A stretch of DNA of 64,000 bases, taken from Eledone cirrhosa (Eukaryota). The notes under the pieces are model-generated. The model was not told the DNA's origin, searched no databases, and worked only from the letters and a program-made list of their open reading frames with translations. Positions within the stretch are counted from its first letter, which is position 1. Every line of letters begins with the position of its first letter. Below are positions 314 through 59,758 of the stretch, piece after piece. Where the stretch lies: positions 302,498,001-302,562,000 of the forward strand of contig OZ024743.1 of NCBI GenBank assembly GCA_964016885.1, written 5' to 3'. The translations under genes were made by a program, and so were the position numbers.

Positions 314-419
314 GCTCCGATGAACTGACTGGTTATCATTTTGTATTGGCGATCGAGTAACGCGAAAACAAGCGGATAGCGATCTCTAATCCTACCAGTT
401 CAGAGAAACAATTGTCAGC
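314..419 (+). ncRNA. Type I hammerhead ribozyme-like motif with extended stem II (core CCGAUGA), in a probable PLE 3' terminal fragment (1-640)
   Basis: GCT-CCGATGA-ACTGACTGGT...ACCAGTTCAGA-GAAA-CAATTG-TC-AGC: stem I GCT/AGC, long stem II, palindromic stem III (ACAATTGT), GUC triplet. Confidence 0.6.
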
Positions 420-661
420 AATGAGATTGAAAACCTTTTTTGTATAGCAAACACTCTTCTTTCCTGATTTATTATTACTCCAAGTGTTTACAACATAGGA
501 ATTACAGCGTACTCACAGCATCTCTATGAAAACGCCTTGTTGAGTCAAACTTAGCCAAGCGTTCATATCATCCACTACCCGGAATACCATAACTGGTCTA
601 CACCTAAGTGGACTGCATATAACTATTATTTGTTACCCCGTATATATATATATATATATAA

Positions 662-1015
662 TGACGAAATATAAGTCAAATGCATAACTCATAATCCTTT
701 ATTTACTGCTATATATATTGGCTATGACCTCATCAGGCAGTTAGGCAGTTCTTAGATATGCCAGCTCTGTGTTTATAGTGTTGATGGTATCAGAGCCTTG
801 GGACATATGAGCTTGTTAGGAATAATTTAATGTTGTCAGCAGGAATAGTCTTAATTCTGATTGGTCAGTTTGTAGATGGTAGTAGGGTTGGTATTTAACC
901 TCAAAGAGGCAGGTGGTATTGTTAAGTTCAAACCATCAAACAAGGTGACAATAGTTCCATATGACTGATTTTCATAAAAAGCGTTCCTGGTCAGATATAT
1001 ATTCAATTAAGGTTA
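662..1015 (-). mobile_element. Decayed 3' end of a Penelope-like element with a degenerate hammerhead (705-741)
   Basis: Minus strand reads ACTGC-CTGATGA-GGTCATAGCC-AA-TATATATA-GCAGT (GAAA eroded). Upstream on the same strand is a TLFDGLN remnant similar to the PLE C-terminal TLxPxGLN motif. Both sides are flanked by (TA)n. Confidence 0.5.
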
Positions 1016-2056
1016 ATATATATATATATATATATATATATATATATATATATATATATATATATATATATATATATATATATATATATACATATGTGTG
1101 TGTGTGTATGTGTGTATATATATATATAACACATATATATATAAATATATGTATATATGTATATATATTGTTCCGGAGAGATTGTTTTGGTAAATAACAG
1201 AAGCAAGCACGAGAAATAACTCTCACACTCGCAGTTTCTAGTTACGGTGGAGAATTTTATAAAAATAACAAAATATGGTGCCGATGTTACATAAATCGTT
1301 TAATCATTACGATTATTTCTACGGTTCTCAAAGCAATCGAGAAGTCCTTCATGCATTTGTTGTTGTTATGAGGACAATATCCCCAAATGAAATCCGATTT
1401 ATGTGATATGCCACCGGTATGAAAAAACACACGTCTATTTGCTCGTCCGCCCAGCAGATATAGGAATGACTGAAAGGGTCTCCCATCAGTCGTGTTTGCT
1501 GGAGTAATGGGTTATCAACGTGTTAATTAGTTAAAACAGGATTCACGCAGCCCCCGCGGAGTTGAGGTCGTAAATCAACTGTGAGGTCATCTCACAAGTA
1601 TGCTGAAATTATCAAACGAAAAACTGTGTAGCCAGAGCCCGCTAGATAGTGGAAGTAATAAATGCAGCTCTGAGGTAGGGGAGCTATATATTTTGTTGAC
1701 ACCCACATTAAGACAACAGCAACAACAAGAACAAGAACAACAATAACAACAACAGCGTACGTTGGCCGTAGCATTCGTAGTGACGGTACCGCCCCACCGA
1801 CAACAACAAAGATAATTACAGCCAGAGCAATAAACGGAACTCTGAGGTAAGTTGACACACGGACTTGATGGCCACTTTCACCATGACCACAGCAACAATA
1901 ACAATAGTAACGGCAACAAGATTCTCGATTGCATGGAGAACCGTAGAAATAATTATAATGATTTAACGATTTATGTAACTTCAGCGTCCTATTTTGTTAT
2001 ATATATATATATATATATATATATATATATATATATATATATATATATATATATAT

Positions 2057-56072: not shown

Positions 56073-58849
56073 GTATGTATATATATATATATATATATAT
56101 ATATATATATATAAATATATTTATTTATTTATTTATTTATTTATGTACATGAAATCGAAGTTTTTAAAATTTCTGATTACATTTAATTTCATTTTATTGC
56201 TTAGCTGCAAGCATAGATCTATTGGAATACATATTTGAAATGCAGCTGCAACATATCAGTTTCGTTGTATTTGCCGTATTGTAGAATATATATTTAGCTT
56301 CATATATTCCTGAGATTGATAGAAAAATAATTCAGACGAAGATGTGTGTAGCAAAAACGAAAATAAAATGAAAAGCTACGACAATTGTCGTTCATGTTTA
56401 TCTTACTATACATTTTTGGTTTGAAAAGGATATTGGAAAATAAGTATTGATGTACTAAACGACGTACATCAAAATATTTTCAATGAATTTAAATTAGCCA
56501 TTTTCCAGAATCGCTTACATTTGACGTTTTATATCTGTTTGTATTTTACAGTTAAGGGTTTAATTTCAATTAAATGAGAATGTTTCCGCACATCATTCAA
56601 AACGTACCTGGATTTTCTAAATGGATACAATTTGTCTACTTGTGATATTGCTTTACACATATTGTTTCGTAATTATGCAAAATATACTGGGGAATGCACT
56701 TTTTAACTCTTCTACAACTTGCCAAAATATAAAGAAGATTGAAATGTCTGCGGTTGCTAGTGAATGTTTATGAATCCGAATCATGTCCGTAGTTGTCAAT
56801 TAGTTTGCCAACAATGATCGGGCCATTCCTCTATGCTTGGAAATAAAATTTTCTGTGAAATAAATATCCAATTCCTGTGAATTATATTCTCTCTTTCCAA
56901 AGACTTTAACAAATACATCTAGATTATTACGTTTGTTATCAAATAAAACGTGTGCTAATCCTATGTATAAATTTAACCCATTGACAATCATTATGAACCT
57001 GAGTTACCACAATTTCTGCCACTGTCAGAGTTTAATTAGTTTCCTTAGCAATATCGATTTAACTATGCGAATTGTATTAGAATGATTCATGGAATTATTT
57101 TTCTGCCTTTAAAACTTACACACACTAGTATAAGTAGCCTTTGGAAAAGGAAAACTTAACTTCATTGATGAGTTCTAATAAAAATGAAAGATATACATAT
57201 CATCTTTTTACTTCAGCCTACATTTGTGAAATTAATTAAATATTTGTTGTAATTATTCCCATTCGTATGAGCATCGACAACAATAGCAACTAAATGTTTT
57301 CCTCTCTCCAAATAAGCTGTTAGATCCAACTCCTGGACATATGATTATGATTTAGTTTTAAGGCTCATCAAGTGATATTTGTAAATATATTTTTGATAGT
57401 AGTATATATATATATTTGTTTGGTAACTCAATCATGTCAAAATGTTGTATAATTTAAAAATATCCATTGTCTCTGATTACAAGCTTTAGTGTTTCATCAC
57501 AACTCAACTGGATTAACAGTTGGATGACCAATGTCTTTCTAGGCTGTTTTAATGTTTTAAGCACAGTAGAAAATACAAGGTATCATTTTCTTAAGAGCAT
57601 TTCCTATGAGACAACCTCTATTTCGCTGCAATTTCCTGTTCGTATTTCAGTATTGAAGTAAGATGTAGTTGTTCCAAAGATCATAGCAGTATGTGGATAT
57701 CATGGAAACATCTTCATTCTGGATGTTCTTTATCATTATATACAGAACGCCTTTCTTCAGTATTATATCGATTATTAGATATAACGTTTATTATGAAATA
57801 CGATCAGTCAGACAGTGATTGTGAACATCGCATAACAAACATTATTTATAAGGTTGGTTTGGCAGTGTTTCGCTGCTGTTTTAATATACCAAAATATATA
57901 TAAATGTTGAAATGATGTAGTAAAGATTTTCCACTGAAGTAAAATCCTTTTCAGAAAACGTTTAGTTATATGTTATTATTTTCATTATTGCCATTTTTCA
58001 GTATCGGTATTTTTCTACGCGTCTGTCCTCAATAAATACCTTTAACGGGGCCTTCCAGAAATGCTTTAAAATGGTTTATTTCAAACTACACTAATTTGAG
58101 GGTCAGTTATGTGTTTTGTACATGTGTATTGTTGCTCTTTCTGACAGTACAACTGGTCTGCTTCTAGCTAAATTGAATAATCAATGTATCTTTAAGGCAA
58201 GACGTAGATGTTGAATGTATTCTACAATGCTATTGAAGGTATGTTCACATAATGGACGAAGGCACGGAAACATATATTTAGGTAGTTGTACCATATTTAT
58301 AAGTAAGCTATTATGAAATAAGGTTAATGAAATAGTGAGGTTACCATAGACATGTCACTTGTAGTTAAGTGCCTTCAATTTAGATTGAACTTGTGTTAAA
58401 AATGTGTGTATATTTTATTTTACGCGGATGCGGATGGAAAGTGAAAGCACATGTAGCATATGTATATATTAGCCTGGATATTATCTTATACTGGTTTCAA
58501 TTAGGGTATTTGTCTTCTACATCGATCATTTAATGCACTTTCTTTTAATACACTTAAAGCAAGTTTGGGTAACAATATTTATTGAGTGTAAGACGCTTAT
58601 TCTAATACTTGCATTCTTTTGTGTCTCTCAGTTTTCTTTTCTGTTGATATATTTTTTCCACACAGTGAGAGTGATTGTTCAGATAACGTCGGAAATACGT
58701 TCGAGGGAAACATTTGTAATATTGGATTACAGAATTTTAAGGTATATTTCTTATGTATTTTGTCGTTATATATTTATTTTATTCATAATGTTAATGCATA
58801 TATGTATATATATATATATATATATATAAATATATATATATATATATAT

Positions 58850-59053
58850 AACGAAGGAAATGTGGTAAGGAACCAGATGGACCATAACGCACCAAAGTAC
58901 TTAATACGTAGGGTAGTAGAGTGGGTAATAGGAACGAGTAGGACCCCGATGGCTGAGCTCAAGCCGTTTCGACGGCTAATTCTGGACTACATTTAGTCCA
59001 GAATTAGCCGTCGAAACGGCTTGAGCTCAGCCGTCGGGGTCCTACTCGTTCCT
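58850..59053. mobile_element. Family E element with a near-perfect fold-back (arms about 60 bp)
   Basis: 58928-58989 pairs with 58994-59055 around the loop CATT. The plus arm reads GAAA-CGGCTTGAGCTCAGCCG-TC-GGGG (HHR 3' half). Confidence 0.9.
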
Positions 59054-59178
59054 ATATATATATATATATATATATATATATATATATATATATATATATA
59101 TATACATACATATATATGATAATAGCCTCCAGCTAACAATGTATCTATGTTCGTACTTACAAGAATCTTCGTTAATAT

Positions 59179-59758
59179 TTAAAATATCTTTTCCTTCAAG
59201 TATGTATACGTACATGCATATATATGTACATACGTACAGTAGTATGTATATATCTATACATACATGCACACATATATATATGTACGTATGGGTTTACAGG
59301 AACATTTATTATAATATTCGGTTTGTTTGTAAACAAACAGTCCGAATTACGCCGAAGAGTGCTCGGCAACCATCGTCGCCCTTTTATTCAACACTGACAC
59401 AGGAACGATGTACTAGTTTCAAGCTTATTAGCTATCGTCAGCATCGTATACCTTTCTGTCAGATGATTGAACGTTTGAAAGTATATACTTTCCTCATGCA
59501 TTTTAACGGCTGAGCAGCCTAATTTGCATATCGAGTGAGTTAGTCAGCCGGGCGTACCGAAAAACGATAAATGGAAAAGGATGAAACGAAATTTCATTTC
59601 TCACTCTTAGTACGGCTGATACCTAAATATATGTATGTATACGTACATACATATATGTATACAGACGTACAGTAGTATGTATAAATATAAACACATGCAC
59701 ACACACACATATATATATATATATATACGTATGGGTTTACCGAACATATATTATAATG
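59179..59758. mobile_element. Family A copy (over one unit), intact HHR on minus strand at 59406-59446
   Basis: CGATG-CTGACGA-TAGCTAATAAGCTT-GAAA-CTAG-TA-CATCG, with a fully Watson-Crick stem I. Confidence 0.9.

Follow-up and report, generated by a model that had tools for sequence, protein, structure and literature searches.

Which elements account for the hammerhead ribozyme motifs crowded into one stretch of the genome of Eledone cirrhosa, and which enzyme placed them there? The window is the whole stretch of 64,000 nt that was analysed (assembly GCA_964016885.1, contig OZ024743.1, positions 302,498,001–302,562,000, forward strand). A sequence-only reading had listed 26 sites in it, assigned them to about 12 unrelated families and proposed that many are non-autonomous elements moved by co-resident Penelope-like elements (PLEs). 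The window is quite probably an ordinary one, composed of PLE 3' ends and of hammerhead-bearing tandem repeats without an open reading frame (ORF), the latter likely inserted by the reverse transcriptase (RT) and endonuclease of PLEs. GC content is 30%. Simple repeats make up about one quarter of the sequence. Genome-wide extrapolations refer to the 3.0 Gb assembly.

All 26 sites are copies of repeat families whose genomic copies have the type I hammerhead topology. By comparison with these copies they sort into 12 families, named A to L. Stems differ between families, but the families are only in part unrelated: the ORFs upstream of B and C resemble each other (71% DNA identity), and D, E and K share Hydra-type ORFs, which H and L probably follow as well. 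Eleven sites, in families B, C, D, E and K, are the 3' ends of PLEs that code for protein, most of them apparently of the Hydra clade; three (H, L) are probably 3' ends of Hydra-type PLEs; ten (A, I, J) lie in head-to-tail units without a PLE ORF; two have no ORF link. A reading of most sites as non-autonomous is not borne out by these numbers.

Tandem units without an open reading frame

Units are about 466–500 bp long in family A, about 442 bp in I and 595 bp in J. Tandem arrangement was found in 24 of 66 copies of A, 17 of 33 of J and 4 of 22 of I, with no ORF at a consistent distance. The longest ATG frames are of 112 aa (A, crossing a TA tract), 75 aa (I) and 48 aa (J); the only protein match of these frames was a low-complexity frame from an A locus itself. 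Monomers of A and J fold well (z of -8.0 and -6.2; that of A is inflated by a TA-rich hairpin). Judged from arrangement and motif, all three families appear retrozyme-like, being head-to-tail ORF-less units with one type I hammerhead each. Copies of J at dispersed loci are about 99% alike. Monomers of A within one array are 98.4% alike.

The insertion of J in the window (43952–45391) is very young and consists of a short inverted arm and 2.3 head-to-tail monomers of 595 bp. Its first hammerhead (44351–44440, + strand) has the covariant U3-A8 core, a long loop II and a palindromic stem III of 10 nt, with the cut predicted after 44435; in the second monomer (44946–45035, +) the cut is predicted after 45030. 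Family A forms a cluster at 3543–5372, with tandem and inverted arms and TA runs between them. It holds an intact hammerhead of the ORF-less tandem unit (5038–5092, +; core at 5050, predicted cut after 5080) and one with the first stem I pair mutated (4104–4158, -). Further motifs of A are intact at 36470–36524 (-) and 59399–59453 (-), both by descriptor and genomic copies, slightly damaged in the stems with an intact core at 28960–29014 (-), changed at G8 in a 5'-truncated arm at 36852–36901 (+), and truncated and decayed at 48058–48096 (-). Family I is present as one inverted insertion, with an intact core at 40546–40603 (-; ORF-less tandem unit of about 440 bp) and a decayed motif in the other arm at 40846–40902 (+).

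Each monomer of A carries a (TA)n tract (window 3543–5372; loci L008 and L014), so that A spreads its apparent target along with itself. Nesting is common, many insertions of one family lying within the TA runs of another. In a six-unit array of A (L008), units 3 and 5 agree in TA length and carry the same variant base, which may point to a dimeric template or to a dimer that was duplicated later. Another tandem hammerhead family was seen outside the window (L057, L060, L164, L256, L320), with units of 310 bp, stem III CGCG, arrays of up to 11 units and inverted arms. Two sequencing runs labelled as other organisms each contain one self-looping, monomer-length contig of family A (470 and 486 nt; depth 7–10). 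Such contigs fit circular RNA and equally trace tandem-array DNA (contamination or diet), and do not tell these apart. None of the runs listed as containing family A is catalogued as RNA.

Penelope-like elements and their 3' ends

PLE ORFs co-reside with the motifs in the window, as the sequence-only reading had stated. In family D a PLE ORF lies upstream in 44 of 74 copies, mostly about 940 nt away (many of these loci were fetched by ORF search). An upstream PLE ORF at a fixed distance was found in 9 of 25 copies of K (7 of the 9 at 827–843 nt from the ORF), 10 of 28 of C, 2 of 28 of E and 1 of 8 of B. Family L has a complete motif in other copies, with a Hydra-type ORF 1.1–1.25 kb upstream in 2 of 15 loci. 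Family H is linked to a Hydra-type PLE at two loci, through inverted arms only. Upstream DNA of F and of H, searched for ORF parents, matched a PLE on the same strand at 1 of 25 loci each, neither convincingly placed; family G has an upstream PLE ORF in 0 of 23 copies.

Intact ORFs of 702–726 aa with Hydra motifs occur elsewhere in the genome, in 12 of 12 regions picked for long frames. ORFs of family D exceeding 700 aa contain DKT, an RWK-like motif reading RWR, a CxCX5C linker, and CxxC and CxH around the E and N of the endonuclease. Read against the description in PMC8557442, these motifs would place family D in the Hydra clade; E and K appear to fit it by similarity. Insertion into (TA)n, as in Hydra-clade PLEs, is seen in D, E and K. 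Pfam gave no informative match to the Hydra-type ORF. For B and C, a CX2-5CxxC linker between RT and C-terminal GIY-YIG is present in the closest relative, P0001, and would fit Neptune and Nematis alike. The RT fragment of the window has a protein of Octopus vulgaris as its closest named relative (67% identity). About 30 clusters of PLE-like ORF fragments (65% identity) were present in the sampled loci, most of Hydra type, some being low-complexity artefacts.

Among Hydra-type 3' ends in the window, the hammerhead of K (314–419, +) has a CCGAUGA core (U4C), a stem I of 3 bp, a loop II of about 60 nt and a palindromic stem III, with the cut predicted after 416. Family D, with its family-wide CAGAAGA core (U4A), is present at 30933–30997 (-), 36053–36108 (+; stem I damaged) and 46029–46093 (-), the last about 980 nt downstream of the end of a Hydra-clade ORF. 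A broken copy of the Hydra-clade endonuclease region with the CxCX5C linker spans 47060–47635 (-), and Hydra-clade ORF fragments at 35463–35970 (-) belong to an inverted arm of D. Family E has a canonical core at 16468–16520 (-) and a decayed copy, recognised by alignment to genomic copies, at 19909–19959 (-). Family H forms an inverted pair (31351–31599; motifs at 31378–31448, -, with A9 changed, and 31503–31574, +), and the damaged motif of L (698–748, -) has lost the 3' side of stem II and part of GAAA; both are probably Hydra-type 3' ends.

Putative Neptune/Nematis-type 3' ends comprise families B and C. A motif of B with weak stems lies at 2261–2302 (-), and a decayed one at 6843–6883 (-), downstream of a broken PLE RT-endonuclease ORF (7234–9139, -) whose closest relative has the Neptune/Nematis-type Cys linker. 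Family C is present at 37411–37456 (+; A9 changed), at 48840–48885 (-; GAAA changed), downstream of the PLE ORF end 49099–49711, and at 55438–55481 (+; GAAA changed), downstream of the PLE ORF end 55011–55211.

Insertion structure

All families have fixed 3' ends just downstream of the hammerhead, scattered 5' truncation and frequent inverted arms. The 3' ends run into (TA)n in 26 of 52 segments of J, 51 of 130 of D, 12 of 26 of K, 20 of 36 of E and 28 of 35 of C, against a background of 3%; the count for A is confounded by the TA tract inside its unit. Each family has two 3' end positions, 55–180 nt apart. This two-site tail, together with 5' truncation and the inverted arm, is present in C, D, E, H and K and equally in ORF-less A and J. 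Its presence in A and J is the best evidence obtained here for their insertion by PLE proteins.

In inverted insertions one arm typically ends at the short site and the other at the long site. This pairing was scored for back-to-back insertions away from locus edges and was found in 58 of 69 from seven families, or in 58 of the 59 that could be scored: 12 of 18 in A, 8 of 9 in J, 9 of 12 in D, 4 of 4 in K, 12 of 13 in E, 9 of 9 in C and 4 of 4 in H. One insertion was long/long, none was short/short, and 10 were not scorable; for several families the long end is the end of the reference sequence. The arms of one A insertion agree to 97.6%, compared with 86.7% between loci, as expected if both arms came from one event. 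A tail often present at one end only is a described feature of PLEs. The Anolis PLE is reported to start reverse transcription at two sites in vitro and to cut both strands, and a dimer is predicted for it (PMC11167929).

The motif of A has a U-U opening pair and a short palindrome, as in published Hydra motifs, which points to the Hydra clade as its partner. A long loop II and the longest tails (about 170–180 nt) are common to J and K; that a K-type Hydra family could be the partner of J is speculative. In D, E, F and relatives of L, a YYGAGYGCTY-like motif was noted by eye between the two 3' end positions and is a possible recognition signal for the protein. Beyond the short end, a TA-rich run and then ACTC are often found (also by eye).

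Short hairpin-like inverted inserts between TA runs were seen at 11746–11839, 29929–30083, 43952–44078, 45710–45804 and 58931–59052. Several are two-arm insertions cut off below the hammerhead, and could pass for miniature inverted-repeat transposable elements. Those at 45710 and 58931 come from a repeat in which no hammerhead was seen.

Proposed mechanism and alternatives

The protein that nicks both strands of a TA tract would come from a PLE, most likely one of the Hydra clade with its (TA)n targets, and would likely act as a dimer. Reverse transcription would start at two fixed sites of the RNA, one for each strand, and would yield two arms joined back to back, one with a long tail and one with a short tail. 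Such twin priming by a dimeric protein is an inference of the present analysis. Since the templates of A and J cross the ribozyme cut site several times, each was likely a multimer that had escaped cleavage or a circle closed by re-ligation. Dimeric cleavage by way of the palindromic stem III is predicted for the hammerheads; this step would release monomers or circles from tandem transcripts, and may be dispensable for insertion. In mussel, coral and axolotl, retrozyme-like units are reported to yield circles (PMC7229834 for part).

The sequence-only reading's claim of non-autonomous elements moved by PLEs is supported in part: A, I and J are ORF-less units, and A and J show the PLE insertion signature. 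It is not supported for the 11 sites that belong to ORF-bearing PLE families. That retrozymes ride on PLE machinery has been inferred in print (PMC7229834; bioRxiv 10.64898/2026.07.22.740005).

Several results weigh against the mechanism. Families A and J, compared with four PLE 3' ends (six references in all), have no significant sequence similarity to them. Tails of 55–180 nt are longer than the published 30–40 bp. The pairing count omits F (7 rows) and I (8 rows), the references of which are mixed or out of phase. Among PLE families sampled by ORF, D is the most abundant, and its core is non-canonical. None of 100 listed copies of A begins at the cut site, and 5' breaks within 3 nt of it number 1 of 38 in A, 0 of 19 in J, 0 of 91 in D, 1 of 24 in C and 1 of 34 in E. 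Given that copies start elsewhere, the inserted template was probably not a linear monomer produced by cleavage. Of nine Xenopus retrozyme dimers, one is reported to cleave in vitro (bioRxiv 10.64898/2026.07.22.740005). For the Anolis PLE, ribozyme mutants are described as inserting normally in vitro, no RNA reads as ending at the cut site, and cleavage as requiring protein and not being required for insertion (PMC11167929). Truncation at the cut site as a footprint of self-cleavage had been suggested by junction 4616, and was ruled out by the breakpoint counts.

An account that departs from the proposed mechanism in the ribozyme step only is doubtful, although it survives best. According to it, PLE proteins move the RNAs, the hammerheads are uncut in vivo or their cleavage is irrelevant, the motif is a signal for protein binding or folding, and arrays arise from uncut read-through. 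The absence of breakpoints at the cut site and the normal insertion of the Anolis mutants favour it, as do published reports that many PLE and retrozyme motifs cleave little or not in vitro, and the fixation of U4A in all 100 listed copies of D. Against it, unrelated sequences have preserved the core, the stems and the palindromic stem III, and J retains the 3-8 pair through a double change known to be active (PMC3088659).

Families A, I and J might be mere ends of autonomous PLEs whose full-length copies escaped sampling. This held true for five to seven other families, and samples are limited (66 copies of A, 22 of I, 33 of J); yet the sequence upstream of a unit is repeatedly the previous monomer, in arrays of up to six or seven units, and the few upstream ORF matches lie at scattered distances, so that this origin is improbable. 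A satellite-like origin, in which fragments of PLE ends were multiplied by local DNA duplication and unequal crossing-over, is discussed in bioRxiv 10.64898/2026.07.22.740005. It would suit the near-identity of monomers within an A array and the alternating monomer variants of L008, but is very improbable in view of the short arrays, dispersed in their thousands, which have inverted arms, TA flanks and 3' ends fixed at two sites, and of dispersed J copies that are nearly identical. Mobilisation of the ORF-less units by proteins of long interspersed nuclear elements (LINEs), in the manner of short interspersed nuclear elements, is most improbable of these: LINE fragments are common in the sampled loci and LINEs are named as candidates in PMC7229834, but neither poly(A) nor a shared 3' tail was seen, and the two-site tail, described as unique to PLEs, takes the same form in A and J as in PLE families with an ORF. 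Chance matches in AT-rich repeats, for which the loosening of the descriptor after a strict one found few motifs and the absence of Rfam matches at gathering score could be cited, are already refuted by the excess over shuffled sequence, more than 10-fold in unseen stretches, by the stem III statistics, and by recurrence of the motifs as families at a fixed place near element 3' ends.

Detection and density of the motifs

A strict descriptor found 2 motifs in the window, and one more when one core mismatch was allowed. The relaxed descriptor permits a mismatch opening stem II and a palindromic stem III, and was tuned after the window had been viewed. At a score of at least 9 it found 8 motifs in the window, 6 of them with a perfect core, against a mean of 0.28 (maximum 2) in 40 dinucleotide shuffles, and 0.05 for perfect cores. 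At a score of at least 8 it recovered 10 of the 26 sites, the other 16 resting on homology to genomic copies. Because it had been tuned on the window, the descriptor was run unchanged on 59 unseen stretches of 10 kb at round coordinates. These gave 73 motifs, against 6–9 in five shuffles, and 59 perfect cores, against 1–3.

Extension to 97 stretches (970 kb; shuffle controls cover the first 59) gave 84 perfect-core motifs, or 87 per Mb (bootstrap 58–125), with at least one motif in 41 of 97. Density in the window is 94 per Mb (6 perfect-core motifs in 64 kb). The window is therefore no special hotspot, a possibility ruled out by these figures: the high density asserted earlier is real, far above shuffles, but ordinary for the genome. 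About 250,000 perfect-core motifs (160,000–370,000) are estimated genome-wide, after subtraction of a background of about 3 per Mb and with variant cores excluded. Exact whole-genome counts of 10,333 for a 37-mer of A, 16,707 for a 33-mer of D and 2,616 for a 35-mer of E agree with this estimate in scale. Schistosoma may reach a similar density per Mb.

At gathering score Rfam gave no match in the window. On two short stretches only weak HH9 matches appeared, of 18.6 and 13.2 bits (threshold 52; E values 3.4 and 0.056). A scan of the window by E-value gave 368 matches; the 150 of them that were listed contained no hammerhead and belonged almost exclusively to miRNA-type models on microsatellites.

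Constraint on core and stems

Family motifs of A, B, C, E, F, G, H, I and L conform to the core CUGANGA/GAAA/UH with stems I–III in type I order. Family J conforms through the U3-A8 variant, in which both bases of the core 3-8 pair have changed together; this covariant change is described as naturally occurring and active (PMC3088659). Families K and D depart at core position 4. Exact CUGANGA is present in 15 of the 26 sites; of the other 11, 6 have a family-wide variant core (U4C at 314; U4A at 30940, 36051 and 46036; U3-A8 at 44351 and 44946) and 5 a private change. By reading of aligned copies, about 10 of the 26 match the family motif, 3 nearly so, and the remainder are damaged, in agreement with the decay noted earlier.

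Stem III is fully self-complementary in 8 of 14 distinct segments found without any stem III condition, against 1.5 expected (maximum 6 in 2000 draws), and its palindromes differ from family to family. These statistics support the assignment of the motifs to the PLE or retrozyme type with self-complementary stem III. Position N7 varies freely in family E. One stem I pair of A occurs as G-U, A-U, U-G and C-G. A simple picture of constraint is disturbed by K, in which position 4 is C, stem I has 3 bp and loop II 60 nt, and by D, in which all 100 listed copies carry A at position 4. The 33-mer of D has about 16,700 exact copies in the genome; searches of the open-licence literature gave no relevant natural U4A core.

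The two sites without an ORF link are a motif of F with intact core (29544–29613, -; descriptor and genomic copies) and a minimal, 5'-truncated and decayed motif of G (31199–31240, +). Absent from the earlier list are one fragment and two damaged motifs, namely the truncated copy of A at 48058–48096 and a decayed copy of a thirteenth hammerhead family at 50566–50623 (-).

Comparison with known systems

Systems of this kind are known. PLE hammerheads were published in 2014 (PMC4209133), retrozymes with PLEs as candidate drivers in 2020 (PMC7229834), and the Hydra clade with an Octopus member in 2021 (PMC8557442). What is added here is the scale, the tail evidence for mobilisation in trans and the fixed U4A core.

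Hydra-clade PLEs, including Hydra-1_Obim of Octopus bimaculoides (PMC8557442; listed with hammerhead and (TA)n targets in its supplement), share with the present families a single ORF with C-terminal endonuclease, DKT, an RWK-like motif, CxCX5C, (TA)n targets, and a hammerhead close to the 3' terminus, in which stem II often opens with a U-U pair and stem III is often palindromic. Differences from that description are many more families, tens of thousands of copies, and 3' UTRs of 0.2–1.2 kb or more. All Hydra motifs in the table of PMC8557442 start with CUGA; here U4A is found in D and, together with a loop II of 60 nt, U4C in K.

Hammerheads of PLE pseudo-LTRs (PMC4209133) share type I topology, a short palindromic stem III, an extra base after A9 in some families, dispersed solo motifs or opposite-strand pairs from truncated PLEs, and the U3-A8 variant. 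Numbers differ: about 2,000–9,000 minimal motifs per genome are given there for schistosome, coelacanth and Xenopus, against the estimated 250,000 perfect-core motifs here.

Animal non-LTR retrozymes (PMC7229834; bioRxiv 10.64898/2026.07.22.740005) share ORF-less head-to-tail units with GC below 50% and one type I hammerhead per unit, well-folded monomers, and co-resident PLEs. Unit length is 440–595 bp here and typically 150–450 bp there; the likeness is known here from genomic DNA. The link to PLEs is drawn in those sources from co-occurrence and pseudo-LTR similarity, and here from insertion structure. The preprint makes a case for a PLE origin of retrozymes and covers 31 vertebrates, 3 insects and 1 coral. 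Published loads are up to 120,000 in axolotl, with a genome about nine times larger than the present one, and about 5,000 in mussel. Two fixed 3' ends per family, AT-rich targets and a template uncut by the ribozyme are shared with the PLE tail from two RT start sites (PMC11167929); the near-strict short/long pairing was counted here across inverted insertions and extends to ORF-less families. Searches of the open-licence literature for cephalopod hammerheads or retrozymes gave one relevant paper, Craig et al. 2021 (PMC8557442), and no cephalopod census. Ribozymes are absent from the main text of a curated repeat annotation of Octopus vulgaris of 2026.

Taken jointly, a bolder account is offered only tentatively: that this is the largest reported hammerhead load, of at least a quarter million; that its retrozymes would be integrated in trans by a dimeric Hydra-clade protein with obligate twin priming on circular templates; and that the fixed U4A of D would be either a new active core or a sign of dispensable cleavage.

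Neither ORF annotation nor the Rfam thresholds capture some 10^5 structured RNA motifs in one genome. Two open questions are concerned: which enzyme moves animal retrozymes, and what role PLE hammerheads have. Young ORF-less families, intact Hydra-type ORFs, mapped start sites and natural core variants make both testable in the published in vitro PLE assay.

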